DNA of 64,000 nt from an uncultured Bacilli bacterium (GTDB lineage: Bacteria > Bacillota_I > Bacilli_A > RF39 > UBA660). The DNA is taken from assembly GCA_947629405.1 (NCBI GenBank), contig CANRDL010000001.1, positions 7,502-71,501 on the forward strand, read 5' to 3'. Below, piece after piece: positions 4,364-59,563 of the stretch. The notes below the pieces were generated by a model that was given only the letters and a program-made list of their open reading frames with translations, did not search any database and was not told the origin of the DNA. A program made the position numbers and the translations under genes. Within the stretch, counting starts at the first letter, position 1; every line of letters begins with the position of its first letter.

Positions 4364-6925
4364 ATGAAAAATTTAATTTTAGTTGATGGAAATAATTTAT
4401 TATTTAGAAGTTATTATGCTACAGCCTATAGTGGCGGAAATTTGAAAAATTCTAAAGGATTTCCGACTAATGCTTTGTTTTCATTTATTTCGATGCTTAA
4501 TAAAATAAAACAAGAAGAAAATCCCCATTATATGGTAGTAGCTTTTGATAAAGGGAAAAGTTTTAGACATAAAGAATATAAAGAATATAAAGCAGGAAGA
4601 ATTTCTATGCCTGATGATTTACGATTACAATTTCCCGTTGCTAAACAAATAGTTTCTTTGATGGGTTTTTGTTGTTTAGAAATGGATAATTATGAGGCTG
4701 ATGATATAATTGGTACTTTTGCCAAATGTGATGAAGCAAATAATTTTCATACCACAATTATTTCTTCAGATCGTGATTTACTTCAATTAATTGATTCTTC
4801 AACAGAAATGAAACTTTTAAAGAAATCTGGATATATTAGATATAATGAACAAACTTTTAAAGAAGATTATAAAATTGATCCAATTAAAATTATTGATATG
4901 AAAGCCTTAGCGGGTGATTTATCTGATAATATTCCGGGAGTTTCCAAAATTGGAGAAAAAACTGCCTTAAAGCTTTTGCAAACATATAATGATTTAGATG
5001 GTATATATGAAAATATTGATAAGATAAAAGGAAAACAACAAGAAAGATTAATAGAAGATAAAGAAATGGCTTATTTTTCTAAAAAAATGGCTACTATTTA
5101 TACAAGTATTGATTTACCAATTAATTTTGAAGACACCAAAGTTACGGAAGGTAATGTTGAGCAATTAAATAAATTATATGAAGAATTAGAATTTTATTCT
5201 TATTTAAAAGAAAGTGATGAGGCCACTACAGAAGAAATTGATTATGAAATAGCATCTAGGGAAACTGATTTTAGCGATAGTGAATATTCAATATATATCG
5301 AATGTGACAAGGCTAATTATCATTATGCTAATATTGTCGGAATAGGAATTTCTTCGGCTAATAAAAATTATTATCTAAAAAAAGAAGATATTAATTTAAT
5401 TATACCCAAATTAATAAATAAAATTAAATATACTTATGATTTAAAAAAGAATATAATTTTACTTAAAAAATATAATATTAATCTTGATAATATAATTGAT
5501 GATTTAATGATTTCTACTTATTTACTTGAATATAATACTAAAGATGACATCGCCTATATTATGAATAATGATGATGTAAATATTGAATTTTATGATAAAT
5601 CTCTAAAAAATAATTTTGAAAATATTGAAAAAAATTGTGTTTTAAAATCAAGATATATATATGATTTTAAAAATAAATATCAAAAAGAATTAGAAGAAAA
5701 TGAATTAGCAAAATTATATAGAGAAGTAGAATTTCCTTTATGTAAAATTTTAGCTGAGATGGAACACAATGGTATTTATGTTGATAAAAATAAATTAAAA
5801 GAACAAAGTGAAGAAATAAATATTAAAATAGATATTTTATCTAAAGAAATTTATACTATGTGTGGGAAAGAATTTAATATTTCTTCGCCTAAACAGTTAG
5901 GGGATATTCTTTTTGAAACTTTAAATTTACCAGGTGGCAAGAAAAATAAAAGTGGAAGTTATAAAACAGATGTTAAAGTTTTGCATAAATTAGTTGGCGT
6001 TCATCCTGTAGTAGAAAAAATCTTATTATATCGAAATTTAAACAAATTATATACTACATATTTAGAAAGTCTTCCAAGTTATATTGATGAAAATGGATAT
6101 ATTCATACAATATATAAGCAAACTTTAACTCGTACTGGTCGTTTATCATCTGTTGATCCCAATTTGCAAAATATTCCGGTGCGGGATGAAATAGGAAGAA
6201 ATGTTAGAAAAGCTTTTTTACCAAGTGATGGAAATATTTTATTGGGAGCAGATTATTCACAAATTGAACTTAGATTACTTGCCCATATTAGTAATTCTAA
6301 AGAACTAATAGAATCATTTAATAACTCTTTAGATATTCATTCTAAAGTAGCCTCAGATGTTTTTTCTGTACCTTTAGAAGGAGTAACTAAAAAAATGCGA
6401 AGACAAGCTAAAGCCGTAATCTTTGGTATAGTTTATGGAATAAGTGGTTTTGGTTTATCTGAAAATTTAGATATTAATCCTAAAGAAGCGAAAGTTTTAA
6501 TAGATAAATATTTAGATTTATATCCAGATATAAAAACATATATGAAAAATATTGTAGAAAGTGCTAAAGAAAAAGGTTATGTTAGGACTTTATTTAACCG
6601 TAAAAGAACTATAGAAGAACTTAATAATCCGGCTTTTATGATAAGAAGTATGGGAGAGCGCATTGCCCTTAATACGCCAATTCAGGGAACTGGGGCAGAT
6701 ATTTTAAAAATAGCTATCATAAATATTGATAAAAAATTTAAAGAAGAAAATTTAAAAAGTAAAATGATTTTGCAAGTTCATGATGAATTAATATTTGATT
6801 GTGTTAAAAAAGAAGAAAAAATAGTGAGAAAAATTGTCCAAGAAGAAATGGAAAATGTCATTAAACTTTCTGTTCCTTTAAAAGTATCAGTTGATGAAGG
6901 GTCTTCTTGGTATGAACTTAAATAA
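4364..6925 (+). CDS. polA: DNA polymerase I
   Basis: 853 aa. 5'-3' exonuclease N-terminus (LILVDGNNLLFRSYYA), polymerase motifs (RRQAKAVIFGIVYG, QVHDELIF). RBS GGTGGT upstream. Confidence 0.93.
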   Translation: MKNLILVDGNNLLFRSYYATAYSGGNLKNSKGFPTNALFSFISMLNKIKQEENPHYMVVAFDKGKSFRHKEYKEYKAGRISMPDDLRLQFPVAKQIVSLMGFCCLEMDNYEADDIIGTFAKCDEANNFHTTIISSDRDLLQLIDSSTEMKLLKKSGYIRYNEQTFKEDYKIDPIKIIDMKALAGDLSDNIPGVSKIGEKTALKLLQTYNDLDGIYENIDKIKGKQQERLIEDKEMAYFSKKMATIYTSIDLPINFEDTKVTEGNVEQLNKLYEELEFYSYLKESDEATTEEIDYEIASRETDFSDSEYSIYIECDKANYHYANIVGIGISSANKNYYLKKEDINLIIPKLINKIKYTYDLKKNIILLKKYNINLDNIIDDLMISTYLLEYNTKDDIAYIMNNDDVNIEFYDKSLKNNFENIEKNCVLKSRYIYDFKNKYQKELEENELAKLYREVEFPLCKILAEMEHNGIYVDKNKLKEQSEEINIKIDILSKEIYTMCGKEFNISSPKQLGDILFETLNLPGGKKNKSGSYKTDVKVLHKLVGVHPVVEKILLYRNLNKLYTTYLESLPSYIDENGYIHTIYKQTLTRTGRLSSVDPNLQNIPVRDEIGRNVRKAFLPSDGNILLGADYSQIELRLLAHISNSKELIESFNNSLDIHSKVASDVFSVPLEGVTKKMRRQAKAVIFGIVYGISGFGLSENLDINPKEAKVLIDKYLDLYPDIKTYMKNIVESAKEKGYVRTLFNRKRTIEELNNPAFMIRSMGERIALNTPIQGTGADILKIAIINIDKKFKEENLKSKMILQVHDELIFDCVKKEEKIVRKIVQEEMENVIKLSVPLKVSVDEGSSWYELK

Positions 6926-6936
6926 AGGAGATTAAA

Positions 6937-7755
6937 ATGCCAGAAATTGCTGAAGTAGAAACAGTAAGAAGAACTTTAAAAAAGAAAATTTTAAATAAAA
7001 AGATTCAAGAAGTAAAAGTTTATTATGAAAAAATTATTCAAACTGATTTATCTAAATTTAAAAAAGATTTAGTAAACCAAAAATTTATTGATATAAAAAG
7101 AAAAGGTAAATGGTTAATTTTTGAAACTGAAAAATTTTATTTATTGTCTCATCTTCGTATGGAAGGGAAATATTATATTAAAGACAAAAAAGAACCATTA
7201 GAAAAACATGAACATATTGAATTTATTTTTGATGATAATATTTCTTTAAGATATCATGATACCAGAAAATTTGGTAGAATGATTCTTTGCCCAAAAAATG
7301 AATTAAATAATTTAAAAGAAATAAAAAAACAGGGTTTTGAACCAGGAGATAAAAATTTAACTGTAGAATATTTAAAAAATAAATTAAATAAAAATATACC
7401 TATTAAGACTTTACTTTTAGATCAGACAATTATCTCAGGCCTTGGCAATATTTATGCTAATGAAGTTTTATTTGCGGCTAAAATTAATCCTTTAAAACAC
7501 GGTAATGAATTAAAAGAAAAAGAAATTCAAAATATTATTACTTCATCCAAAAAAATTATTGATGAAGCTATTAAAATGGGTGGAACAACTATTAAAAGTT
7601 ATACTTCATCTTTAGGTGTTACGGGAAGATTTCAACAAAAGTTATGTGTTCATAAAAAAGAAGGCGAAAAGTGTCCAGTATGTCATTCGATAATTGAAAA
7701 AATAAAAATAGGGGGAAGAAGTACTTATTTTTGCCCAAAATGTCAAAAAAATTAG
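6937..7755 (+). CDS. mutM: Formamidopyrimidine-DNA glycosylase
   Basis: N-terminal MPEIAEVE (catalytic Pro2/Glu3) and C-terminal zinc finger CPVCHS...CPKCQ. Confidence 0.9.
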   Translation: MPEIAEVETVRRTLKKKILNKKIQEVKVYYEKIIQTDLSKFKKDLVNQKFIDIKRKGKWLIFETEKFYLLSHLRMEGKYYIKDKKEPLEKHEHIEFIFDDNISLRYHDTRKFGRMILCPKNELNNLKEIKKQGFEPGDKNLTVEYLKNKLNKNIPIKTLLLDQTIISGLGNIYANEVLFAAKINPLKHGNELKEKEIQNIITSSKKIIDEAIKMGGTTIKSYTSSLGVTGRFQQKLCVHKKEGEKCPVCHSIIEKIKIGGRSTYFCPKCQKN

Positions 7756-7806
7756 TTGTTATTTTAAAAATAATGATAATGTAACCCTTAGAGAAAGGAA
7801 AAATTT

Positions 7807-9039
7807 ATGAATACTTTAGAAAGATTTTTAAATTATGTTAAAATTTCTACTACTTCTAATTCTAATAGTCAAACAGCTCCTAGTACTTCTTGTCAAAAAG
7901 TATTAGCTAAATATTTGGTTAATGAATTAAAAAGTATTGGAGTTAATGATGTTTTTTATGATAATGAGCATTGTTATGTATATGCCTTATTAAAAGCAAA
8001 TGTCGAAGCGATGCCTATTGGTTTTATTTCTCATTTAGATACATCTCCAGATGCATTAGGAGAAAATATAAAGCCAATAATAACTAATAATTATGATGGA
8101 AAAGATATAAAATTAAATAATGATATAACTTTACAAACTAAAGTATATCCTGATTTAAAAAATCATATTGGCAAAACTTTAATAACATCTGATGGAACAA
8201 CTCTTTTAGGGGCTGATGATAAAGCCGGAATTACAGAAATAATGAATATGTTAGAATATTTTTGTCAAACTAATGAAAATCATGGTGATATTTATGTATG
8301 CTTTAGTCCTGATGAAGAAATAGGAAATAGTGTTAAATATTTTGATTTATCTAAATTTAATACTAGCTATGCTTATACTGTTGATGGATCTTTTGTAGGT
8401 GAAATATCTTATGAAAATTTTAATGCTGCCACAGCGGAAATAATAATCGATGGAGTATCATCTCATTGTGGGTATGCTAAAGGAATAATGGTAAATTCTT
8501 TGGATTTAGCCCATGAAATTCACAGTTGTATTCCAAATGAAACACCTTCAAATACAGAAGGTTATGAAGGTTTTTATCATTTAGAAAATCAAAATGGTAC
8601 AGTAACTAAAACAACAATGAGTTATCTTATTCGAGATTTTGATAAAGATAATTTTGAAAAAAGAAAAAATATGATACAAGAAATTGTTGATAGATTAAAT
8701 CAAAAATATAATAATTGCATTCATTTAAAGATTACTGATTCTTATTATAATATGAAAGAAAAAATAAAAAATGATATGCATATAGTAGAAATTGCTAAAA
8801 ATTCAACTAAAAATGTAAATGTGGAACCAGTTATCACAATTGCCAGAGGTGGGACAGACGGTGCCGAATTAAGTTATAAAGGTATTTTGTGTCCTAATTT
8901 GGGAACTGGCGGTCATAATTTTCATAGTATATATGAATATATTGCTTTAGAAGATATGGAAAAAGCTAGTGAAATTTTAATTGAAATAGTAAAATCTTAT
9001 GCTAAAGAAAAGGGGAAAATTAAAAGTAAAAATAAATAA
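7807..9039 (+). CDS. pepT: Peptidase T (tripeptide aminopeptidase, M20 family)
   Basis: 410 aa. The N-terminal MNTLERFLNYVKISTTS and M20 metal-binding regions match the PepT pattern. Confidence 0.8.
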   Translation: MNTLERFLNYVKISTTSNSNSQTAPSTSCQKVLAKYLVNELKSIGVNDVFYDNEHCYVYALLKANVEAMPIGFISHLDTSPDALGENIKPIITNNYDGKDIKLNNDITLQTKVYPDLKNHIGKTLITSDGTTLLGADDKAGITEIMNMLEYFCQTNENHGDIYVCFSPDEEIGNSVKYFDLSKFNTSYAYTVDGSFVGEISYENFNAATAEIIIDGVSSHCGYAKGIMVNSLDLAHEIHSCIPNETPSNTEGYEGFYHLENQNGTVTKTTMSYLIRDFDKDNFEKRKNMIQEIVDRLNQKYNNCIHLKITDSYYNMKEKIKNDMHIVEIAKNSTKNVNVEPVITIARGGTDGAELSYKGILCPNLGTGGHNFHSIYEYIALEDMEKASEILIEIVKSYAKEKGKIKSKNK

Positions 9040-9768: not shown

Positions 9769-11292
9769 ATGGAAAAAATAATAAGTTTTAAATATAACAA
9801 TTGTGAATATATTCTTTTTTACGATAAAGAATTAATATGTGGGAAGAATATAAATGGTAAATTAAGTTTTGATTTAACTCAAGATGAAAAGGATCTTGTT
9901 TTTTCTGTTTATTCAAAAGTAGTACCAACTGATAATTTAAAAAAACTTAGGAATGTCACTATTCATAAAAAAGTTTTTCAACATTTTTTTGATTTAACTA
10001 ATAGACTACATGTATTTTATGATGAATTTAACAATATTCCTAAATTAGAAGATTTTATAATTTTAAATAAATTATATAATAATCAAAAGCAATATTTTGA
10101 AAGTATAAAAAAAGATAAAAAAGCTTTAAAAGAAGAAAAAGATGCCAATTATATAAGAAGAAATGTAAGTGTTTATAAAAGAAATAAAAAAGAAAAAATT
10201 TGTGTTAATATTTTTCTATCATTATGCTTAATATATACAGGTTTCGTACATTTACAATGTGTTCCTAAGGTTGCTAATGTTATTCAAATAGAAACTGGTT
10301 TATATCAACAGTATGAGTCATTGAATGAAAATGATATAATTAATGCTATAAATAATAATCCTAATTTATCTAATGAAGAAAAAAAATATTTATCATCTTT
10401 TAATGATTTTTTCACTGATATGTTGCCATATTGGGATTACAGTGATTTAATGGATAGTTTATCAAAAATGACTATAAATTATACACCTGAAAGCGCTTCA
10501 AAAGTGAATGGTACTTGGGACCCAATATTTCGTCAAATATCAATTTATGAAAGTACTAAACTTACCAAAGATAATATAGGAACTTTAAGACATGAATTTT
10601 TTCATACAACTACCTCTAAAGCTGCTTCTTTGGGGATTACCATTGATGACGGATTTTATGAATTATTAAATAGAGTAATGGATGATGAATATAGTTATCT
10701 GAATTCTACATGTATAGAATATGATTATGGCTATAATTATATAGAAGAAATTGGATATATAATGCTAGATTTATTTGATAGTGAAACTTTAAAAGCGTAT
10801 CATGCCAAACCTAATTTACAAATGTTAATTGATAGCCTTATGAACATAATTCCAGATGAAGATATGGCTTATAATTTGCTTAATGATTTTAATGATTATT
10901 TTCTTGCTTGTAAAGGTTATTACGATATTGATAAAAAATTATTTGATTATAAATCAAAAGATGAGTTTTTTGAAAATATGTGTACATTAACTCCTTTATT
11001 AAAAGAAAATTTAAAAAAATATTGGGAACTTAAACATAGTAAAAGCATAAGTAGTGATCCGTTTATTTATTACTTATATAATAAATATGAGTATTATACA
11101 GATAGAATTATAAAAATAAATTGTAATAGTTATATTTCCTATTCAGAATTTGCTGATGGTGTAATTGCAAATTATAAACCTTGTATAAATCAAAGATTAT
11201 TTAATTCATATGACTTTAAGTTGTTAATTCCTTTAAAGGATGGTAGAACTGTTTCTTATATAGAAACTTATGATAAATCAATTACAAAATAA
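9769..11292 (+). CDS. Membrane-anchored putative zinc metalloprotease (gluzincin-like HEFFH...E)
   Basis: HEFFH motif with a Glu about 19-20 residues downstream (GFYE), matching thermolysin-type spacing. One predicted TM helix (ICVNIFLSLCLIYTGFVHL) precedes the HExxH domain. No family recognised. Confidence 0.45.
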   Translation: MEKIISFKYNNCEYILFYDKELICGKNINGKLSFDLTQDEKDLVFSVYSKVVPTDNLKKLRNVTIHKKVFQHFFDLTNRLHVFYDEFNNIPKLEDFIILNKLYNNQKQYFESIKKDKKALKEEKDANYIRRNVSVYKRNKKEKICVNIFLSLCLIYTGFVHLQCVPKVANVIQIETGLYQQYESLNENDIINAINNNPNLSNEEKKYLSSFNDFFTDMLPYWDYSDLMDSLSKMTINYTPESASKVNGTWDPIFRQISIYESTKLTKDNIGTLRHEFFHTTTSKAASLGITIDDGFYELLNRVMDDEYSYLNSTCIEYDYGYNYIEEIGYIMLDLFDSETLKAYHAKPNLQMLIDSLMNIIPDEDMAYNLLNDFNDYFLACKGYYDIDKKLFDYKSKDEFFENMCTLTPLLKENLKKYWELKHSKSISSDPFIYYLYNKYEYYTDRIIKINCNSYISYSEFADGVIANYKPCINQRLFNSYDFKLLIPLKDGRTVSYIETYDKSITK

Positions 11293-50840: not shown

Positions 50841-52857
50841 TATATCCATTATTTGGCTAATATTATTTATATTAATTTGGATTTTATTTAACATTTTTTT
50901 TGATAAAGAACAAGTAATAAAGGAAAATTATTTTATTGGTAATGTAGTAGATTATAAAATAAGTGAAGAAAAAATAACATTAGAAGTCAAAAATAAAAAG
51001 AAAATTATGGCTTATTATACTTTTAAAAATAATAAAATAAAAAAATATTTTATTGAAAATATAAAATATGGAACAAAAATAAAACTTTATGGCCAATTTG
51101 AATCACCTTCCCAAAATACTATACCTAACACTTTTAATTATAAACATTATTTAAAAAGTAAAAATATTTATAATATTATAAAAGTTAAAAAAATAGAAAT
51201 AATTAATAATAAAATAAATATATTTTATAATCTTAAAAATATTATAAATAAAAGAATAAATACTATTGATAAAAATGGATATTTAAAGACTTTTATAACT
51301 GGTAGCAAAGAAGGAGTAGATAAAACCGTTATAACTTCCTATCAAAAAAATGGAATATCTCATTTATTTGCTATATCGGGAATGCATATAACTTTATTAT
51401 CAAGTATGATATTAATTTTTCTTAAAAAATTAAATTTTAATGAAGTTATTACATATTTAATAATTTTTGTTTTTCTGATATTTTATGCTTTTTTAACTTC
51501 ATTTACACCATCAATTATAAGAGCTTTAAGTGTTTATATTTTATTTAGTTTAAATAAAATATTTAATTTAAATATTAAAAATATAACATTATTTTTATTA
51601 GCAATTTTTATTATATTATTATTTAATTATAGATTAATTTATAGCATTTCCTTTTTATACTCTTCTATAACAAGTTTCGGTTTAATATTAAGTTCTAATA
51701 TTTTAAAAAGTGGGGGATATTTTTTTAAAATATTAAAAGTTTCATTGGTAGCATTTTTATATAGTTTGCCAATAACTGTTTTAAATTTTTATGAAATTAA
51801 TTTATTATCTATTATTTATAATCTTTTATTTGTTCCATTAATAACTATTATTGTTTATCCTTTATCATTAATTTGTTTTATTTTTCCTATTTTTCTAAAA
51901 TTATTTAATATATTAATTATTAATGTCGAAAAAATATCTTTATTATTTGCTAATATTAAAATTTTTAATTTAACTTTTCCAAAATTCAATGTCATTTTAT
52001 TAATAATATATTATCCTTTAGTTTATTATTTATTTAATTTAAAAAGAATAAAATTTTTAATTTATATTATATTTTTGTTTTGTTTTATAAAATTAATACC
52101 TTATTTAAACATTAATAGTTATGTTTATATGTTAGATGTATCTCAAGGAGATTGTTTTGTTATTCAAGATAAATTTAATAAAAAAAATATAATGATTGAT
52201 ACAGGCGGCAGTTATAATGAATATTTAAAGGATAATATTATAACTTTTTTAAAAAGCAAAGGAATAAATAAAATAGATTTTCTTATCTTAACACATGGCG
52301 ATTATGATCATATGGGATATGCTGAATATTTTGTTAAACAAATAAAAGTTAAGAATGTTATATTTAACATTGATGAATATAATAATTTAGAATTAAAGTT
52401 AATTAAAGTATTAAAAAGTAAAAAAATATCTTATTATAAAAATGTTGAACAATATGATAAATTTCAATTTTTAAATACAAAATTATATGATAATGAAAAT
52501 GATAATTCCAATGTGATTTATTTTAATTATGAAAATTATAAATTTTTATTTATGGGTGATGCTAGTATAAACAAAGAAGAAGATTTATTAGAAAAATATA
52601 ATTTAAAAAATATTGATTTTTTAAAAGTTGGTCATCATGGATCAGATACTTCAACAAGTTTAAAATTTATAAATACTATTAATCCTAAATATTCTTTAAT
52701 TTCCGTAGGGAAAAATAATAAATATGGTCATCCAAAAAAATCAGTTTTAAATAATTTATCAAATTCACAAATATATCGAACTGATTTAGCTGGTAGCGTA
52801 GAAATTAAATTAAATAAAAAAGGTTATAAAATATATCTTTGTAATGATTTTAATTAA
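50809..52857 (+). CDS. comEC: Competence protein ComEC/Rec2 (DNA internalisation channel with a metallo-beta-lactamase domain)
   Basis: Polytopic membrane core plus a C-terminal MBL motif (LILTHGDYDHMG; HHGSD). TTG start overlapping the comEA end. Confidence 0.85.
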   Translation: MLKLKIKLLSNISIIWLILFILIWILFNIFFDKEQVIKENYFIGNVVDYKISEEKITLEVKNKKKIMAYYTFKNNKIKKYFIENIKYGTKIKLYGQFESPSQNTIPNTFNYKHYLKSKNIYNIIKVKKIEIINNKINIFYNLKNIINKRINTIDKNGYLKTFITGSKEGVDKTVITSYQKNGISHLFAISGMHITLLSSMILIFLKKLNFNEVITYLIIFVFLIFYAFLTSFTPSIIRALSVYILFSLNKIFNLNIKNITLFLLAIFIILLFNYRLIYSISFLYSSITSFGLILSSNILKSGGYFFKILKVSLVAFLYSLPITVLNFYEINLLSIIYNLLFVPLITIIVYPLSLICFIFPIFLKLFNILIINVEKISLLFANIKIFNLTFPKFNVILLIIYYPLVYYLFNLKRIKFLIYIIFLFCFIKLIPYLNINSYVYMLDVSQGDCFVIQDKFNKKNIMIDTGGSYNEYLKDNIITFLKSKGINKIDFLILTHGDYDHMGYAEYFVKQIKVKNVIFNIDEYNNLELKLIKVLKSKKISYYKNVEQYDKFQFLNTKLYDNENDNSNVIYFNYENYKFLFMGDASINKEEDLLEKYNLKNIDFLKVGHHGSDTSTSLKFINTINPKYSLISVGKNNKYGHPKKSVLNNLSNSQIYRTDLAGSVEIKLNKKGYKIYLCNDFN

Positions 52858-53692
52858 TTATATTTGAAAGTAATTGTTCTACTTTCAATTTATTATTTAT
52901 GTTATATAATATTCCCATATCGATAGTAATAGTTTTTGAAAATAGAGGAATTTCATATAATAAATTGTTATTTAATTCGTTAATTACAAATTCTTTAATT
53001 AAGAAACCATTAGCATATCCATTAATAATAATTGGACAAATGTTATCATGATCATAAACTTTTATTTTATTAACTGAAATATTAGAATTACGAATATAAT
53101 CATCATATATCGCATTAAGTCTTTTATTTTCTAGCATAACTAACGGCTTATCACTTATCTTATCATCTTTTGAATTAGACACAAATATTAAGTGTAATTC
53201 ACCCAATTTTTTAAATTTTATATTATCATTAAATTGATAATTTAATGGCTCTAAAATATATGCAAAATCAATTAAATTATTGGATAATTGATTATTTAAC
53301 AAATCAAAATCTTCAGCATTTATAAAGTTAACATTTTTATTACTTTTTAAAATCTTATCAATTTTATTTTCATTAATAAGATAATTTAAAATAGATTTAT
53401 TTACTGCTATTTTAATAGTATTATTATTAATAAGTTTGGAAAAATCATTTTCAGCCTTAATAATGTTATTTATTTCACTAGAAATAAGTCTATATAATTC
53501 GTTACCTTCATGAGTTAATATTACACCTTTATTTTTCCTAACAAATAATTTGGTATTCATTTGATCTTCCATTGTTTTTAACATTCTACTTATCGCTGGT
53601 TGACTAATGTTTAATTCATTCGCTGCTTTAGTTATATTTTTATTTTTGGCTATAACATAAAAAACTTTATAGTATTCAAAATTAATATTCAT
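52850..53692 (-). CDS. LysR-family transcriptional regulator
   Basis: N-terminal wHTH FYVIAKNKNITKAANELNISQPAISRMLKTMEDQMNTKLF plus a substrate-binding-domain-length C-terminus. Confidence 0.8.
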   Translation of the reverse strand: MNINFEYYKVFYVIAKNKNITKAANELNISQPAISRMLKTMEDQMNTKLFVRKNKGVILTHEGNELYRLISSEINNIIKAENDFSKLINNNTIKIAVNKSILNYLINENKIDKILKSNKNVNFINAEDFDLLNNQLSNNLIDFAYILEPLNYQFNDNIKFKKLGELHLIFVSNSKDDKISDKPLVMLENKRLNAIYDDYIRNSNISVNKIKVYDHDNICPIIINGYANGFLIKEFVINELNNNLLYEIPLFSKTITIDMGILYNINNKLKVEQLLSNIIN

Positions 53693-53808
53693 TCTCCATC
53701 ACCTATCAATATTATATCATAACAAAATGTTATGTCAAATATAAAGAATAGGTATTTTACAAATGGCAAGTCAAAATATATAATATAGGTCAAGAAAAGG
53801 GGATATAT

Positions 53809-54126
53809 ATGAAAAATGAAAATTTATATAATACTAATACATTAATGAACATTAAGAATCGAAAAGTTATTATATATTTAGCAAAACAAGTTATTCAATT
53901 AAACTATACTTGTAATAACATAGTACCAAATGAAAAGTTTCAAAGAGCAATAGCAATGTTTACAAATAGAAATGAAGATTTTGAGACAATAAAGCAAATT
54001 ATAGATTGGCATGTTCAAAATGAGAGAACAAGATACATTGAACATTTAAAAAGAAAAAGGAAATACGAAAAAGTAAAAAACAAACATAATCAAAACAAAA
54101 CATTACCAAAGAAGAAAGTTGCCTAA
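53809..54126 (+). CDS. Hypothetical small protein with a strongly basic C-terminus
   Basis: 105 aa. KRKRKYEKVKNKHNQNKTLPKKKVA tail. Diverges from the LysR gene. Confidence 0.4.
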   Translation: MKNENLYNTNTLMNIKNRKVIIYLAKQVIQLNYTCNNIVPNEKFQRAIAMFTNRNEDFETIKQIIDWHVQNERTRYIEHLKRKRKYEKVKNKHNQNKTLPKKKVA

Positions 54127-54148
54127 ATAAAGTTAGGGGGAAAATAAA

Positions 54149-54988
54149 ATGAATAAAGAAAATACACATTATAGTCCAATATCAGTGATCGATGGTGTAC
54201 AAATTATGATAAATAGATATCCTGAACATACAGATTTTTCATATGAAATGTATAAAAAATTTAGAGATACTTCATTCGAAAAAAAATATTATGATTTTGA
54301 TAAATATAGAAATATACGTGAATTGGAAAGAGCTGCATCAAGTTTTATATTTGTGAAGTCATATTATAAGAATAACAATGAATTAGAAGATTGTTGTTTA
54401 GGTAGTAAAGCCATGGACGATTGGGAAAAAAGAGACTTTACTAACGATTATAGAATAAGATATGTTGGTAATCAACATGGAATAGTACCCACAATACCTT
54501 ATAAATTTGTTTCAAAAATAGCAAAAATGTATAGAGAATTTCGTTATTATAACTATAAGGATTATTATGCTTTAGGGTATTATCCAAAAGAAAAAATAAT
54601 TTTTTACGAAAAAATGATTTTTGGTGAGAATTGGGGTTGGGTTGATTTGGAAGATGAATCTCATTATATTAAGAATCGAAAACTAGAACATCTTCCAAAA
54701 GAATCAGAATTACATATAACAGATGAAAAATTCTTATTTCCAACAATTATAGATGATAAATTAGAACTTGAAACTTACAACGTTTATCAAGCTGAAACTT
54801 TAGAAGGAACAAAAATAAATGTTATAAAATATAATGATAAATGGTTTAGACTTGAACCTGTAGTATGGAAAAAAATCGGAAATGACTTAGTTTGTACTAA
54901 TATTCTTTTTGAATCGCCAATTCATATGAAAAATGATTATGTAAAAAGCAATGATATTCAGTCATTTGAAGATACATTTCTAAAGTAG
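54149..54988 (+). CDS. Hypothetical protein (279 aa)
   Basis: ORF with a GGGG RBS. No recognised domain. Confidence 0.45.
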   Translation: MNKENTHYSPISVIDGVQIMINRYPEHTDFSYEMYKKFRDTSFEKKYYDFDKYRNIRELERAASSFIFVKSYYKNNNELEDCCLGSKAMDDWEKRDFTNDYRIRYVGNQHGIVPTIPYKFVSKIAKMYREFRYYNYKDYYALGYYPKEKIIFYEKMIFGENWGWVDLEDESHYIKNRKLEHLPKESELHITDEKFLFPTIIDDKLELETYNVYQAETLEGTKINVIKYNDKWFRLEPVVWKKIGNDLVCTNILFESPIHMKNDYVKSNDIQSFEDTFLK

Positions 54989-55054
54989 TATATTGATAAT
55001 GTTTTTACTAGAGATTTATTTAAAAATGTTGATTACAATTTAATAAATAATAAA

Positions 55055-55234
55055 ATGATATTAAGCATAGATGAAGAGATTGATACAAAATTAAAAGAAA
55101 TAGAAAAATTAAAACAAATGAAAGATAATTTAATCTTACAACAACAAAGTGAAGAACATATCATTGATACCGCACATAGAAAATTATTTGAGAAAGATCA
55201 TAAAGAACAAGTAATTACTAAATTACATAAATAG
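55055..55234 (+). CDS. Possible small coiled-coil protein (59 aa), not in the ORF track
   Basis: MILSIDEEIDTKLKEIEKLKQMKDNLILQQQSEEHIIDTAHRKLFEKDHKEQVITKLHK. It fills an otherwise unexplained 270-bp gap. Confidence 0.25.
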   Translation: MILSIDEEIDTKLKEIEKLKQMKDNLILQQQSEEHIIDTAHRKLFEKDHKEQVITKLHK

Positions 55235-55258
55235 TATATACGAAGGGAATGTTGAAAA

Positions 55259-56002
55259 ATGGATCGTTATACAGATAAAAAAATTACTTCAATTGCTATT
55301 CAATTAGAAAAATTAGGAATTGAATTTATACATTTTTATAAATATGATTTTGCAAGCAATTATATTGGAAAAGAATCTGGAGTACAAATTGATTGGTTTT
55401 TTCAAAATAGTATATTATTTACAAAATCTATTCATAAATTTCCTGATGAATTAAATATAGAAGAATTTGTTTCTATATATAAGGATAATTTATTATCAAA
55501 ACAAGAAGCTGAATATTTCTATAATTTTGGTTGTGAAATATATAATGATGGTAATTGTTCTTGTATCAGTGGTTGTAATAACATTAGTGATTATTATTAT
55601 GGTAGATTTTCACCTAAATATAAGGATTTTAAAAATGATTTTGCAGTACCAATAGCAGTGAGAAAAGTTGATACTAATAGTAATTTTGCCAATTCTTTAT
55701 TACCAATTTTATTTGGAAAAAGGATAGTATTAGAAGATTGCTCAGTAGACTTGTGTTACTTTGAAAATGTAAATTTGGTAATTCCTATTGAAAAATATTT
55801 TAAAAAAAGTATGAATATATATAATTTTAAAAAATGTGATAAATATAAAGAAGGAACATGGTCACTTGATGATTTAATAGGATATATAAAAATTAAAAAA
55901 AATAGTGAACAAAATCATATCAATGATATTACACACAATAATATAATGGATATTTTAGAAAAAGAAGAATCTGATGCAAAGTTTAAAACAATACATAAAT
56001 AG
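55259..56002 (+). CDS. Hypothetical protein (247 aa)
   Basis: ORF with no recognised domain. Cys cluster CSCISGC. Confidence 0.4.
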   Translation: MDRYTDKKITSIAIQLEKLGIEFIHFYKYDFASNYIGKESGVQIDWFFQNSILFTKSIHKFPDELNIEEFVSIYKDNLLSKQEAEYFYNFGCEIYNDGNCSCISGCNNISDYYYGRFSPKYKDFKNDFAVPIAVRKVDTNSNFANSLLPILFGKRIVLEDCSVDLCYFENVNLVIPIEKYFKKSMNIYNFKKCDKYKEGTWSLDDLIGYIKIKKNSEQNHINDITHNNIMDILEKEESDAKFKTIHK

Positions 56003-56022
56003 TGATATAATTGCTATGGTAG

Positions 56023-56637
56023 GTGTTTATGAGAAGTAAAACTATTTTAATAAATAATTCTAATGATTATAATAACTTTTTAAGTAAAATTAATATATAT
56101 AAGAGTATTTTATACTATAATACTCTTTTTGTGGTTAAAAATAACATTAATGATAATATGATAAATTATATAATAAATGCCTTAAATATAAAAAATCGTA
56201 AAACAAGAATTACATACATATATGATATTTCATGTAAATTAATTGATGATAATAATAAAAATATTAATGTGTGTGGCTTTAAAAATAATAAATGCTATGT
56301 ACAAAGAAAAATAAAAAATGGTAAATGCAATGGTTGTTGTAGAAAATGTTTGTATCAAACAAAAAAAGGATGTTCTACTAAAAATCTTACTTGTAAATTG
56401 TTTAATTGCTCCGAGGTAAGAAAACGATATAAAGTGGTAGAATATAGCGATTTAAAATTATTGAAAGTATTAAGTTTAAAAAATCAAATAATTATAAAAT
56501 CAGACTATTTTTCAAAAAGAGAAGATGTATTAAAAGATTTATACTCTTACACTTTAACTTATTCAACTTTGAGAATTGTTTACAGATTAACAAAGAATTT
56601 TGTTAAATTTAACAGAAAAAAGAAAGATAGCAATTAA
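56023..56637 (+). CDS. Hypothetical Cys-rich protein (10 Cys within ~50 aa)
   Basis: CGFKNNKCYVQRKIKNGKCNGCCRKCLYQTKKGCSTKNLTCKLFNCSEV, likely a metal-binding module. Confidence 0.4.
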   Translation: MFMRSKTILINNSNDYNNFLSKINIYKSILYYNTLFVVKNNINDNMINYIINALNIKNRKTRITYIYDISCKLIDDNNKNINVCGFKNNKCYVQRKIKNGKCNGCCRKCLYQTKKGCSTKNLTCKLFNCSEVRKRYKVVEYSDLKLLKVLSLKNQIIIKSDYFSKREDVLKDLYSYTLTYSTLRIVYRLTKNFVKFNRKKKDSN

Positions 56638-56685
56638 TGTATGGTATAATTATACATAGGATAATGAAACTTATATTATTGAAAA

Positions 56686-58389
56686 GTGGTGATAATAATG
56701 AGTATGGATCAAAAAAATCAAATAATTGAAGATTATATAAATAATATTTCGAGTCAAGTTAATAGTCGATATAATGGATTAATAAATAATGATATAATAT
56801 CTCGTGCTTTAATAATGTTTAAAGATTCTTCTAAAGATTTGAAAACAGAGATTATTCCCAAGATAAATGAATATATGTTAGAAATTGTAACAAATTATCT
56901 TAAAGCTAAAGAAAAAGAACAAACAAATATAATGCTTAAAAATATTGAAAAAAATATAAATTCAGATTTTTTTATAGAAATGTTAAAAAGAAATTGGGAA
57001 AAGACACATAATATTCAATTATTGAGCAAATTAATTGGTGAATTATATATTCATCATATTATAAATAAAGACAGTTATGGGTTTGAAAATTATATGAACC
57101 ATATTGAAAAACTATATTTACAATATAATAATAAACAAATATCTCCCAAGCAATTCGAATTTCAAAGAGCTAAACTAATTTCAATGATAATAGGAATGAA
57201 AATGGGGATAGATTTAAATAAAAAAATATCAGTTGAAGATATAGAAAGAGTCAAAAATCATTTTTTACAAGAATATATTTCTAATGGCTATGTATCCCAT
57301 TCATTTCCTGATGCTTACTATGAGTCAATAATGAAAAATGGATTAATTTCTTCAACTAAATTAAGAAATGACAAACCATTGGAAATTCAAGAAATTCAGG
57401 ATATATTTATGAAAAAAGGTGTTGTTGCACCAATGGGAGGATATCCTTATTATGGTGGCTCTGGAATATATTATGAGCAGGAGTTTACGAAAATGTTTTG
57501 GCATTCTATAGATTCTCCTGAATGGTTTAAATGGTTTACTTCATCTGATCATTTTACAACTTATCATAATAATATAGAAACATCTCCATATATCTTAAGA
57601 AGTGAAAAAGATTGTAGAAGGAATATCGATGATTTATGTAGAAATGCTGAATTAGATGATAATGATACAAAAAAAGTAGTAAATTTTTATCAAAAACAAT
57701 ATGCTAAATTTATGTCGCCAAAATTAAATGTTGCTCTAATTTCCAAAAAAACAGTTGGAAAAGATAACATCCGAGAAGCAGTTCCTCAGAATATGGATTT
57801 ATTTAGTACAATAAGTTATGTTTTAAATGATGGGGCACATCAATATAGCGAACATAAAGGAAATGTTTATAATGGAGTTATTCCTCCTACAGAATTAAAT
57901 ATTTCTGTTATACCGAATGCTTCAATATATATTAAATCTGATAACTATAGTAGAGAAACAAAAGAACATTTGACAAACCCAGATAGTAATTTAGCATTTT
58001 TACAAATTGCTGAAGAAAACAAAAATAGATTAGTTTCTTCTATGCCTTCAAAAATAGAAAAAGCCGAAAGTGAAATTATGCGAAAAAAAAATCCACCTTT
58101 TAATTTTAGAAATGAAACAATAAGTGAAACTAATCCTACTTTTTCAAAGAATAATAATTTTGAAAAAAGAAGTTCTAATGAAATACAAATAGCAAATCAA
58201 ATCAAACAAAAAAATCAAATGATAAAAAAACAAAAACTACAACTTAATAGGCCTAAAGTTTTAACTAAATCTAATTTAAGTGGTAGTTCAACTGGAAACA
58301 AAGGATTTATTAATAGTATTACATTATCATTAATAGTTATTTTTATATTAGGAACATTGTTTGTAGTTTACATGTTAATTAGGAGATAA
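56686..58389 (+). CDS. Hypothetical 567-aa protein with a C-terminal tail-anchor TM helix
   Basis: C-terminal SITLSLIVIFILGTLFVVYMLIRR. The rest is soluble with no recognised domain. Confidence 0.45.
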   Translation: MVIIMSMDQKNQIIEDYINNISSQVNSRYNGLINNDIISRALIMFKDSSKDLKTEIIPKINEYMLEIVTNYLKAKEKEQTNIMLKNIEKNINSDFFIEMLKRNWEKTHNIQLLSKLIGELYIHHIINKDSYGFENYMNHIEKLYLQYNNKQISPKQFEFQRAKLISMIIGMKMGIDLNKKISVEDIERVKNHFLQEYISNGYVSHSFPDAYYESIMKNGLISSTKLRNDKPLEIQEIQDIFMKKGVVAPMGGYPYYGGSGIYYEQEFTKMFWHSIDSPEWFKWFTSSDHFTTYHNNIETSPYILRSEKDCRRNIDDLCRNAELDDNDTKKVVNFYQKQYAKFMSPKLNVALISKKTVGKDNIREAVPQNMDLFSTISYVLNDGAHQYSEHKGNVYNGVIPPTELNISVIPNASIYIKSDNYSRETKEHLTNPDSNLAFLQIAEENKNRLVSSMPSKIEKAESEIMRKKNPPFNFRNETISETNPTFSKNNNFEKRSSNEIQIANQIKQKNQMIKKQKLQLNRPKVLTKSNLSGSSTGNKGFINSITLSLIVIFILGTLFVVYMLIRR

Positions 58390-58394
58390 TTGAT

Positions 58395-58811
58395 ATGAAT
58401 GAAAATATAATAGATGAATATTTAGATAAAGAAAAATCTTATAAACGATTAAAAGAAGAATTTGAGACACATAAAAAATTAATTATAGCTTATGATTTAG
58501 ATAGTACGGTTTTTGATTATCATAATACAGGGGCTTCGTATGAAATGGTTAAAAATTTGATTAGAAAATATAAAAAATATGCTTATTTTATAGTTTTTAC
58601 TTCATCTGAACAAGACAGATATGATGAAATAAAATCAATTCTACAAAAAGAAAATTTACCATTTAATTCTATTAATGAGGACGCTCCATTTATTCCATTT
58701 AAAGGTAGAAAAGTTTATTACAATATTTTATTAGATGATCGAGCCGGTTTAAATCAAACATATAATGAATTATTAAGATTATATAATGAAGTAATTATAA
58801 ATCTAAAATAA
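58395..58811 (+). CDS. Small HAD-superfamily phosphatase-like protein (5'(3')-deoxyribonucleotidase-like)
   Basis: N-terminal motif I IIAYDLDSTVF (DxDxT) and a C-terminal LLDDRAG acidic motif. 138 aa. Confidence 0.5.
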   Translation: MNENIIDEYLDKEKSYKRLKEEFETHKKLIIAYDLDSTVFDYHNTGASYEMVKNLIRKYKKYAYFIVFTSSEQDRYDEIKSILQKENLPFNSINEDAPFIPFKGRKVYYNILLDDRAGLNQTYNELLRLYNEVIINLK

Positions 58812-58830
58812 TAATTAAGGATAGGATAAC

Positions 58831-59427
58831 ATGGATAATTTAAATATGAAGATATTAAAATCTCATGCTGAAATAGATAAAATAAATGTTGATATTAATA
58901 ATAAAATGTTTAATTTTATTACAAAAGCAAATGAATTAGTAGAGCTATCGGATTATGATTATCAAATAGAAAAAACATTAATGCTTAATAAAATATCATT
59001 AAAAGGATATATGTTAGCTTCTGATTGTTGTATTCAATTAGCTGAGAATAATATAACTGATTATTCAATAGATGCACTTAAAAATTATTTAAATCAATAT
59101 GAAAAATCATTTAACACTGATTGTTCTAAATATTTATTAGCTCTTTCTTTATATGAATTAATAGAAGATATTGAAAAACTAGTTGATTCAAAAATTAATT
59201 TAGAAATTAATGAATTAAGTAATATAATATCTAATATAAATGATATAAAAAATAATAATATAGATGAATATGAAAATTTATATTATAATTTTAAAACTCA
59301 ATTAAAAAATTATTTTAAGAATAAGTTAAATGAAAAATCTTATAATATATATGTACAAATGTTAAATGATATTTTTAATTTTTATGTAAATGGATATCCT
59401 AATATCCCCGAAGAGTATTTAAATTAG
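58831..59427 (+). CDS. Hypothetical protein (198 aa)
   Basis: ORF only. Confidence 0.4.
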   Translation: MDNLNMKILKSHAEIDKINVDINNKMFNFITKANELVELSDYDYQIEKTLMLNKISLKGYMLASDCCIQLAENNITDYSIDALKNYLNQYEKSFNTDCSKYLLALSLYELIEDIEKLVDSKINLEINELSNIISNINDIKNNNIDEYENLYYNFKTQLKNYFKNKLNEKSYNIYVQMLNDIFNFYVNGYPNIPEEYLN

Positions 59428-59529: not shown

Positions 59530-59563
59530 TAAAAAAAAAGATACAAAATTGTATCTTTTTTAA
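59530..59563. terminator. Bidirectional terminator between the hypothetical cluster and the convergent ponA
   Basis: aaaaaaaaagatacaaaattgtatctttttt hairpin. Confidence 0.6.

Follow-up and report, generated by a model that had tools for sequence, protein, structure and literature searches.

Between comEC and ponA in a 64-kb stretch of DNA from an uncultured Bacilli bacterium (contig CANRDL010000001.1; the whole stretch, ~23% GC, is called the window below) lies a block of undescribed genes read from the plus strand, with a lysR-type regulator transcribed divergently from it. Our analysis covered 52.8–59.6 kb of the window. Our leading reading is that the block is a cargo operon of a Tn4451-type integrative mobilisable element (IME), left stranded in the chromosome and perhaps serving as an accessory conflict module concerned with NAD or ADP-ribose, and we put the probability of this combined reading at about 40%. 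Its known kind is IME cargo, and the module is probably a conflict module. The original prediction, made from the sequence alone, had described a co-directional run of seven or eight uncharacterised genes with short spacers. The open reading frames (ORFs), which we number g1–g8, are indeed co-directional, with gaps of 5–66 nt, but they make up seven genes and not eight, g3 being the C-terminus of g2. The block is an accessory, undescribed multi-gene module, and neither a demonstrated defence system nor a biosynthetic cluster nor a fixed eight-gene system.

The block travels with its regulator as mobile-element cargo

The mobile-element origin of the block is established by comparison with its bacterial relatives, all of which come from metagenome-assembled genomes (MAGs; comparison loci and homologous proteins are given L- and P-numbers respectively). 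These MAGs, from human, rabbit, rumen and chicken samples, are labelled Bacilli bacterium, Erysipelotrichaceae bacterium, Clostridium sp. CAG:417 or Candidatus Faecimonas. Elements of this family thus circulate widely among uncultured Bacilli of the gut. The complete unit is found again in L010 (lysR and g1–g8) and in L120/121 (all eight positions); L009 has lysR and g4–g8, and L024–26 contain a variant of the unit. In place of comEC and ponA, these relatives have mobile-element genes on their flanks. A Mob_Pre relaxase gene (PF01076) lies upstream of lysR in L009, L010, L024–26 and L120/121, and in L010, L024–26 and L120/121 g8 is followed by HTH_3 and HTH_36 genes and by a gene for a large serine recombinase of 533–535 aa (Resolvase, Recombinase, Zn ribbon and DUF4368). 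The HTH_3 product is repressor-like and is also the flank of L009 opposite to Mob_Pre; L120 additionally has TnpV. The left flank common to L024–26 and L120/121, a hybrid histidine kinase gene, suggests a shared insertion site.

Among IMEs that combine a serine recombinase with a MobV relaxase, Tn4451 is the reference (PMC5704250). As in the Tn4451/Tn4453 family of Clostridium perfringens and C. difficile, the intact relatives of the block have a large serine recombinase and a Mob_Pre/MobV relaxase around their cargo, and the TnpV of L120 is a further likeness. They differ from that family in being about twice as long and in carrying a LysR-controlled operon of undescribed proteins in place of catP or catD, and the copy in the window has lost all mobility genes: tblastn found no homologue of the relatives' serine recombinase or Mob_Pre relaxase within the 64 kb. 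The window therefore holds cargo and not an element.

The suspicion that the block is an island was borne out at 80 metagenomic loci with a related PonA, which are distant and not close sisters, as no PonA in the metagenome collection exceeds 54% identity (range 42–54%). The recU–ponA pair is kept in 76 of them, and none of the 80, 28 of which span at least 7 kb downstream of ponA, has a block gene, lysR or comEC nearby. The block is neither an assortment of unrelated housekeeping families nor a universal part of the core genome. Because the unit is flanked by mobility genes in its relatives and is missing at related recU–ponA loci, we consider it highly probable that the block was acquired horizontally and is Tn4451-type IME cargo stranded between comEC and ponA. 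The left edge of the acquired block is the exact end of comEC. A compositional island signal was not found: the GC content of the block (0.17–0.26) resembles that found elsewhere in the window, as a transfer between similar organisms would lead one to expect. Even the conservative reading leaves a plain case of IME cargo that was stranded in a chromosome and has begun to decay.

LysR and the operon form one regulatory unit

The lysR gene (52850..53692, minus strand) encodes a protein of 280 aa that matches HTH_1 (PF00126) with E 3.6e-18, in agreement with the divergent LysR regulator originally proposed; the LysR_substrate domain reaches only E 0.11 and 12 bits in Pfam. Homologues with 59–74% identity to it adjoin the same operon in L009, L010, L024, L026 and L120, with differing flanks. 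By this comparison lysR is part of the module and not a chromosomal neighbour.

The divergent control region between lysR and g1 is 116 bp long (53693..53808). A promoter scan placed the lysR promoter on the minus strand (TTGACA-16-TATAAT, 53738..53711, 12/12 consensus matches) and the operon promoter on the plus strand (TTTACA-17-TATAAT, 53756–53784, 11/12 consensus matches). Between the −35 and −10 elements of the lysR promoter is a dyad of the T-N11-A type, ATAAC-N5-GTTAT (ATAACAAAATGTTAT, 53719–53733). The intergenic region, including both promoters, is almost invariant across six element copies; the dyad is exact in four of the six and has a one-base variant in L009 and L120. In L009, which lacks g1–g3, the same control region directly precedes g4. 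That this region is nearly invariant while the LysR proteins have diverged from that of the window argues that LysR and the operon are one regulated unit, for which we regard the conserved control region as direct sequence evidence. We infer that LysR probably binds the dyad in its own promoter and controls the divergent operon in response to an inducing signal.

g7 encodes a HAD phosphatase with relatives in phage NARP1-type operons

Searches of Pfam, NCBIfam, PHROGs, PADLOC and PDB sequences gave no significant match for g1, g2, g4, g5, g6 or g8, whether the query was a single sequence, each family member in turn or a profile. The sole significant family match among the block ORFs was that of g7 (58395..58811, plus strand, 138 aa) to phrog_1238 (PHROGs, E 1.2e-19). 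Its nearest structures are uncharacterised structural-genomics proteins, the best being the HAD-like 2obb (E 1.3e-4, profile). Residues D34, D36, T38, K106, D114 and D115 are invariant in eight bacterial and phage homologues, which have S/T at motif II; judged by this alignment, g7 is a capless HAD-superfamily phosphatase whose active site is intact. The HAD-like (DxDxT) assignment of the original prediction thus holds, with all HAD motifs present, but nothing was found to link g7 specifically to deoxynucleotidases. The gene occurs in all module copies except L024–26, and its product is 82–93% identical in L009, L010, L012, L021 and L120, while that of g6 is 56–79% identical between copies. 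In RefSeq phage records the phrog_1238 family is mislabelled 'phosphoheptose isomerase'.

The phage homologues share a type of neighbourhood. In all five phages inspected, namely Phass-1, Bacillus phage BCPG3 (Herelleviridae), the crAss-like phages DAC15 and cr111_1, and Vibrio phage VPT02 (Demerecviridae), the g7 homologue lies between or beside a gene annotated as ribose-phosphate pyrophosphokinase (Prs-like) and a Nampt-like gene, and we confirmed NAPRTase domains in the Nampt-like products. The five phages represent four unrelated lineages, and the gene order of the operon varies among them. The phage g7 loci are L032 4007–4426, L033 4001–4393, L034 3483–3911, L035 3486–3878 and L036 3471–3902.

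A Prs-like and Nampt-like pair is characteristic of NARP1, a pathway that uses Adps and Namat to remake NAD+ from ADP-ribose (ADPR) and nicotinamide (10.1101/2024.02.11.579819). Other enzymes found in NARP1 operons are Adpp, a Macro-domain phosphatase that converts ADPR-1''P to ADPR (NARP1-AP; Osterman et al., bioRxiv 10.64898/2026.01.28.702374), and RyDEP, a glycosidase that converts cyclic ADPR (cADPR) to ADPR (10.64898/2026.05.28.727677). The NARP1, Adpp and RyDEP papers make no mention of an associated gene of the HAD type. The phage g7 homologues resemble Adpp in their position inside or beside the Adps–Namat pair, and g7 is likewise a predicted phosphatase; unlike g7, a capless HAD protein, Adpp is a Macro-domain protein homologous to Poa1p, and, unlike NARP1-AP, the window is without Adps or Namat. 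Because the genes known to be inserted in NARP1 operons convert ADPR derivatives to ADPR, the substrate of g7 should, by analogy, be a phosphorylated compound of the ADP-ribose type. Reasoning from this analogy, we suggest that g7 probably dephosphorylates phosphorylated ADP-ribose or a related ribose phosphate.

The family also has members in another setting. On the large Paenibacillus peoriae plasmid pPlas1 (L128), a g7 homologue of 50% identity (4989–5411) has no Nampt neighbour, and a gene for RtcB RNA ligase lies ~1.2 kb off (6579–7997), a context which hints that the g7 family may act also in RNA-end or nucleotide repair.

g6 encodes a modular tail-anchored protein with a possibly ART-like core

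The g6 gene (56686..58389, plus strand) encodes a protein of 563–567 aa, the shorter length following from the start that gene callers place at 56698. A constant, helical N-terminal domain (NTD) of ~75 aa (56698–56928) is followed by a conserved core of ~380 residues (~56935–58077), which represents an undescribed family and contains a segment of beta-alpha structure like that of ADP-ribosyltransferases (ART; 57286–57438), and then, after a basic amphipathic helix, by a transmembrane (TM) helix (58324–58380). This helix corresponds to residues 547–565 of the 567-aa ORF, with a Kyte–Doolittle value of 2.84, and as there is no further hydrophobic segment, the earlier description of g6 as a tail-anchored protein proves apt. 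The tail of proteins in the g6 slot consists of the motif FxxRSQSEIxIAxQIKxKN, a Lys-rich KPKVKTLT, a Ser-rich linker and the TM helix.

Comparison of the copies establishes a modular architecture, in which the NTD and tail are always the same and the centre varies. The proteins of the window, L009 and L010 have the g6 core at their centre, that of L024 has a 250-aa domain unrelated to it, and that of L120 has yet another; homologues in databases provide GH10-like centres (P0083, P0087) and a HipA_C-like centre (P0088; Pfam E 2.4e-5, below the cut-off). P0088 (L029–L031 10001–11446; 189 member sequences) stands alone among gpsA, lspA, rluD and sigma factor genes, and because this is a conserved housekeeping neighbourhood the NTD-X-tail architecture is not restricted to mobile elements. 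The g6 family has 89 homologues, and an exhaustive HMM search with the core gave 251 clusters at 50% identity. No Pfam domain was found in the 29 + 41 + 10 members scanned, multidomain ones included, and tblastn of g6 against phages gave no match. Where g6-core and g7 genes are neighbours, they occur in two orders: g6–g7 in the window, L009 and L010, and g7–g6 in L012 and L021.

The AlphaFold model of g6 has a pLDDT of 87 over its full length and of 80 in the core. Among weak Foldseek matches in PDB and BFVD, NAD+ users with the ART fold were the sole recurrent functional class; they comprised DarT1, many KptA/Tpt1 proteins, PARP13, a phage PARP catalytic domain, a phage DarT and a phage RNA 2'-phosphotransferase. 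We then used hhalign to compare a wide, 41-member g6 alignment with an alignment of E. coli KptA and five phage homologues. This gave a probability of 59% and P 9.5e-5, with a score of 37.0 over 49 columns; control scores were 13.4 for the reversed alignment, at most 18.2 for 30 column-shuffled alignments and 17.0 for an unrelated HAD alignment. Residues 197–247 of g6 align with residues 101–151 of KptA, the LYHGT...GL strand-helix of its NAD-binding lobe, and the aligned motif GYxFHSF..GL holds the most conserved residues of the g6 family, H201, F203 and G215, of which H201 is nearly invariant in the 41 diverse members. Measured against these controls, the likeness to KptA is real but local, and we think the odds somewhat favour an ART fold for the g6 core.

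The comparison with described enzymes cuts both ways. The g6 sequence aromatic-H-S-F, followed after ~11 residues by G-L, aligns with LYHGT...GL of Tpt1/KptA, and ART-fold NAD+ users (DarT, PARP catalytic domains, RES/aRES) dominate the named weak structural matches. The g6 core nevertheless gives no significant full-domain match to these enzymes; it differs from them in carrying large insertions of helices, in following a further helical domain and in lacking anything like the RNA lobe of Tpt1. A complete catalytic triad or tetrad (H-Y-E, R-S-E or the R-H-R-R of Tpt1) could not be traced through the family: in the close g6 subfamily Y258 and H386 are invariant and E385 is nearly so, while none of the three is conserved in the wide alignment, in which divergent members may be misaligned. 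We rejected an H-Y-E triad for the family as a whole for this reason.

In the Tpt1–Poa1 and RES–Adpp pairs, an ART-type reaction is followed by the action of an ADPR-phosphate phosphatase. Because of these precedents, g7 might process an ADPR-type product after g6 has acted.

Some g6 homologues depart from the common form. P0082 (676 aa) has Trp at many positions where all others have Gly or Asn (for example YWWKWIYYDH vs YGGSGIYYEH) as well as a long C-terminal extension; the Trp pattern suggests an artefact of sequencing or of the translation table used for the source record. In P0026 and P0042 (857–869 aa) the NTD is replaced by an N-terminal extension of ~280 residues which has no Pfam match and contains an HExxH-like VIHEAAHS, and could be a fused metallopeptidase-like domain.

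g8 accompanies the membrane tail

The helical 198-aa product of g8 (58831..59427, plus strand) is encoded by the constant last gene of the module, present in every copy. Its 706 homologues are without a Pfam domain, no PDB or Pfam match was found even with distant homologues included, and tblastn against plasmids gave no match. The gene lies directly downstream of every tail-bearing g6-slot protein examined except the solitary P0088, and the g6 homologues that lack the tail (L012, L013, L019–23) are all without a g8 neighbour. Genes for g8 and for the g6 core with its tail also stay adjacent outside IMEs, down to 35–48% identity (L004, L008, L011, L014–18). These loci are not phylogenetically independent, so the association of tail and g8 is a lead and not a statistic. 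As the adjacency of g8 tracks the tail, it suggests that g8 works with the membrane tail of g6-slot proteins and not with the enzymatic centre, which also speaks against cognate immunity.

The g8 proteins are 75–87% identical beside three unrelated centres (g6 in the window, a 450-aa protein in L024 and a 702-aa protein in L120). We rejected g8 as a cognate immunity protein for this reason, the centre changing completely while g8 is constant; we also rejected an absolute rule linking tail and g8, to which P0088 is an exception. In L004, the gene after the g6–g8 pair (10091–10879) gives a borderline match to CYTH (triphosphate tunnel metalloenzyme; E 1.8e-4, 21.8 bits against a cut-off of 23.2), a nucleotide-related neighbour.

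The first genes of the block are a mosaic and partly broken

The 105-aa product of g1 (53809..54126, plus strand) has, as had been noted, a highly basic tail, with 14 K/R in its last 34 residues. Residues 13–60 match the N-termini of g6-slot proteins in L010 (E 7e-7), L024 (450-aa protein, E 1e-5) and L120 (702-aa protein, E 1e-10), from which g1 is seen to be a free-standing copy of the NTD (here ~50–75 aa) with a basic tail added. It is 83–85% identical in L010, L024 and L120. Both g1 and g2 are present in the window, L010, L024–26 and L120, and g1–g3 are missing in L009.

The gene g2 (54149..55234, plus strand) consists here of two ORF pieces, g2 proper (54149–54988) and the 59-aa g3 (55055–55234), which the original prediction took for a possible coiled-coil peptide. 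They are in the same frame and are separated by a TAG at 54986–54988 where the relatives have TGG (Trp), giving FLK*YIDN in the window and FLKWYIDN in L010 and L024; there is no ribosome-binding site ahead of the 59-aa ORF, and in L010, L024 and L120 g2 and g3 form a single ORF of 331–376 aa. We therefore rejected a separate peptide gene in favour of a cut-off g2 C-terminus. The identical TGG to TAG change appears in three independent metagenome contigs and so is not an assembly error. On this comparison g2 and g3 are one gene with a nonsense mutation, truncated or a pseudogene in this genome.

The next gene, g4 (55259..56002, plus strand; 247 aa, seven Cys), lies outside known families. It is intact in the window, has GAA changed to TAA in L009 and a frameshift in L010, and is fragmented in L120. 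These three different lesions (L009 8437–9306; L010 8551–9304; L120 7266–7972) all fall within the first ~70 codons, and the C-terminal ~180–200 codons remain open and 73–84% identical to the window, a pattern that could reflect ordinary decay or selection for a shorter product. Stop-codon reassignment was rejected because the lesions in the block are of different kinds (TGG to TAG, GAA to TAA, frameshift) and resemble ordinary mutational damage. The last ~36 residues of g4 (212–247) match residues 341–376 of the L024 g2 protein (E 2e-8).

In g5 (56023..56637, plus strand; 202–204 aa, gene callers placing the start at 56029, for 202 aa), all 10 Cys lie in residues 71–129, much as first described. 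The Cys pattern may resemble that of CxxCxxCC/YkgJ-type metal-binding domains; hmmscan gave no support for this. The gene is in every module copy examined, and none of its 525 homologues has a Pfam domain. In L024 and L026 the ~200 aa of g5 are joined to a GH10 domain as the N-terminal part of a 623-aa protein, and in L117 a homologue with 62% identity is found alone in a core-genome context.

Among the relatives, g1–g4 are thus dispensable or broken, and the persistent parts of the module are g5, one modular g6-slot protein, g7 and g8. As far as these copies tell, the block is a recombining set of modules, not a fixed eight-gene machine. Its description as an accessory, undescribed multi-gene block is upheld, since it moves with lysR in mobile elements and most of its proteins fall in no described family; a single co-functional system is not, the content being mosaic.

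Weighing the readings

If the block is a stranded NAD/ADP-ribose conflict module, we envisage that LysR would bind the dyad in its own promoter and control the divergent operon; that g6 would be an NAD+-using enzyme of the ART superfamily, anchored at the inner face of the membrane by its C-terminal helix; that g7 would remove the phosphate from a phosphorylated product of the ADP-ribose type; and that g8 would work with the membrane tail of g6. The purpose of the module would then be defence or counter-defence in conflicts with phages or other mobile elements. We infer the ART activity, the g7 substrate, the role of g8 and the biological purpose of the module from the comparisons above.

Several observations weigh against this reading. 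For g6, Foldseek searches with the full model and the trimmed core against PDB, and with the core against BFVD, gave no match with E <0.07, and PDB sequence and profile searches gave no significant match for g6, nor for the L024 450-aa protein or P0083. The hhalign match is local, with 49 columns at 59%, and falls to 1.5% with a narrow g6 profile; moreover, GIYYE and E385, needed for an H-Y-E triad, are not conserved in the wider family. For g7, the identity of the phage operons as NARP1 derives from depositor annotation together with the Nampt partner, the phage Prs-like genes having no Pfam match at 1e-5 save for one below-threshold Pribosyltran. No Prs-like or Nampt-like (Adps/Namat) gene is found in the block or in any bacterial copy, and g7 homologues on Bacillus and Paenibacillus plasmids do not adjoin Nampt genes. 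In L120 g7 follows a protein with a different centre, by which a strict tie of g7 to the g6 core was also rejected. P0088 has the tail and no g8 neighbour. None of the eight ORFs matches PADLOC-DB at E 0.1, and the broken genes (g2 here, g4 elsewhere) show that selection does not maintain every part of the block.

The original prediction had seen a likeness to defence or nucleotide-modification islands, or to a cryptic biosynthetic cluster. With the PADLOC result, resemblance to a known defence system falls away; a nucleotide flavour finds some indirect support, since g7 homologues occur in a NARP1 setting and g6 gives an ART-like signal. Nothing points to a biosynthetic cluster, as no core biosynthetic enzyme or transporter was matched by Pfam or NCBIfam in the block.

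A bolder form of the conflict reading would have the LysR-gated operon deploy exchangeable enzymes (a highly divergent, NAD+-using ART, a HipA-like kinase, a glycosidase-like domain) on a common membrane-tail scaffold, with g5 and g8 as dedicated partners, and would place g7 in a third class of ADPR-phosphate phosphatases, so far undescribed, which phages would have taken up into their NARP1 operons. We regard this fuller scheme as unlikely in its entirety.

The other reading that we take seriously, and still find doubtful, is that the block is decaying cargo with no joint function, a mosaic of unrelated lineage-specific genes on an IME, now stranded and in some cases dead, whose common orientation reflects the layout of the element. 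The nonsense codon in g2, the breakage of g4 in L009, L010 and L120, the loss of g1–g3 from L009, the free replacement of the centre in the g6 slot and the occurrence of g5 homologues and of an NTD-X-tail protein alone in core-genome contexts would all be expected of such cargo. Against this reading stand a lysR control region that is more conserved than the proteins, g5, g7 and g8 intact at 75–93% identity in all copies having them, the persistence of the g6–g8 pair down to 35–45% identity in distant genomes outside IMEs, and the retention by g7 of every catalytic residue.

It is less probable still that the operon is counter-defence cargo, with g7 acting like the feeder enzymes of phage NARP1 and, together with g6, neutralising NAD- or ADPR-based host immunity when the IME enters a new cell. 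Such a role would fit the location of phage g7 homologues in NARP1-type operons, where the known inserted genes encode anti-defence enzymes acting on ADPR derivatives, and the operon does adjoin the relaxase gene in intact elements; but Adps and Namat are not found beside g7 in any bacterial copy, and a LysR-controlled, membrane-anchored enzyme would be an atypical early-entry anti-defence factor.

We think a toxin function improbable, in which ART-like, HipA-like kinase and glycosidase centres would make the NTD-X-tail proteins interchangeable toxins for competition or abortive infection and g8 would be their immunity protein or chaperone. Constant ends around swappable enzymatic centres, the HipA_C-like centre of P0088 and the ART-like signal in g6 recall polymorphic toxins, and Firmicutes examples such as the LXG toxins of type VII secretion share with the block a constant helical N-terminal module, exchangeable enzymatic domains and small helical proteins nearby. 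In contrast to those toxins, the variable domain in the g6 slot is central and not C-terminal, there is a constant C-terminal membrane anchor, and g8 does not co-vary with the enzymatic domain, keeping its 75–87% identity across complete changes of centre; P0088, moreover, has no g8-type neighbour. The block shows no signal peptide, recognisable secretion domain or LXG/WXG match, no secretion genes were seen, and the basic stretch before the TM helix predicts that the g6 enzyme is cytoplasmic.

An RNA repair or modification function, in which g6 would act like Tpt1/KptA on 2'-phosphorylated RNA and g7 as an end-healing phosphatase like the HAD domain of T4 polynucleotide kinase-phosphatase, would account for the KptA family being the best profile match of g6 and for RNA ligases near g7 homologues (RtcB on the Paenibacillus plasmid, an RNA ligase near the Vibrio phage copy), but is very improbable, as KptA residues 101–151 alone align and its N-terminal RNA-binding lobe (LRH motif) is unmatched, membrane anchoring would be odd for an RNA repair enzyme, and the block has neither ligase nor kinase.

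Were the conflict-module reading correct, it would provide the first functional context for the large families of g5 (525 matches), g8 (706) and the g6 core (251 clusters at 50% identity), which come from gut Bacilli that are very common but uncultured. It would also document that enzymatic domains can be exchanged like cassettes while the N-terminal module and the membrane anchor on either side stay fixed, and would tie a new HAD-type enzyme to the NAD+/ADP-ribose arms race of bacteria, phages and mobile elements. The link of g7 to this chemistry would be directly testable with published NARP1, aRES and Thoeris assays.

Boundaries of the block

On the left, the coding regions of comEC and lysR converge, and their 3' ends overlap by 8 bp (52850–52857). 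On the right, a 132-bp spacer after g8 leads to the convergent ponA–recU, and the strong bidirectional terminator proposed earlier is found in it as a hairpin between g8 and ponA (59534..59561, A9-GATACAA-AA-TTGTATC-T6, folding z −3.6). A consensus terminator scan missed the hairpin because its stem is AT-rich; flanked as it is by A and T runs, it can, as a predicted intrinsic terminator, act in both directions and be common to the operon and to the convergent ponA.

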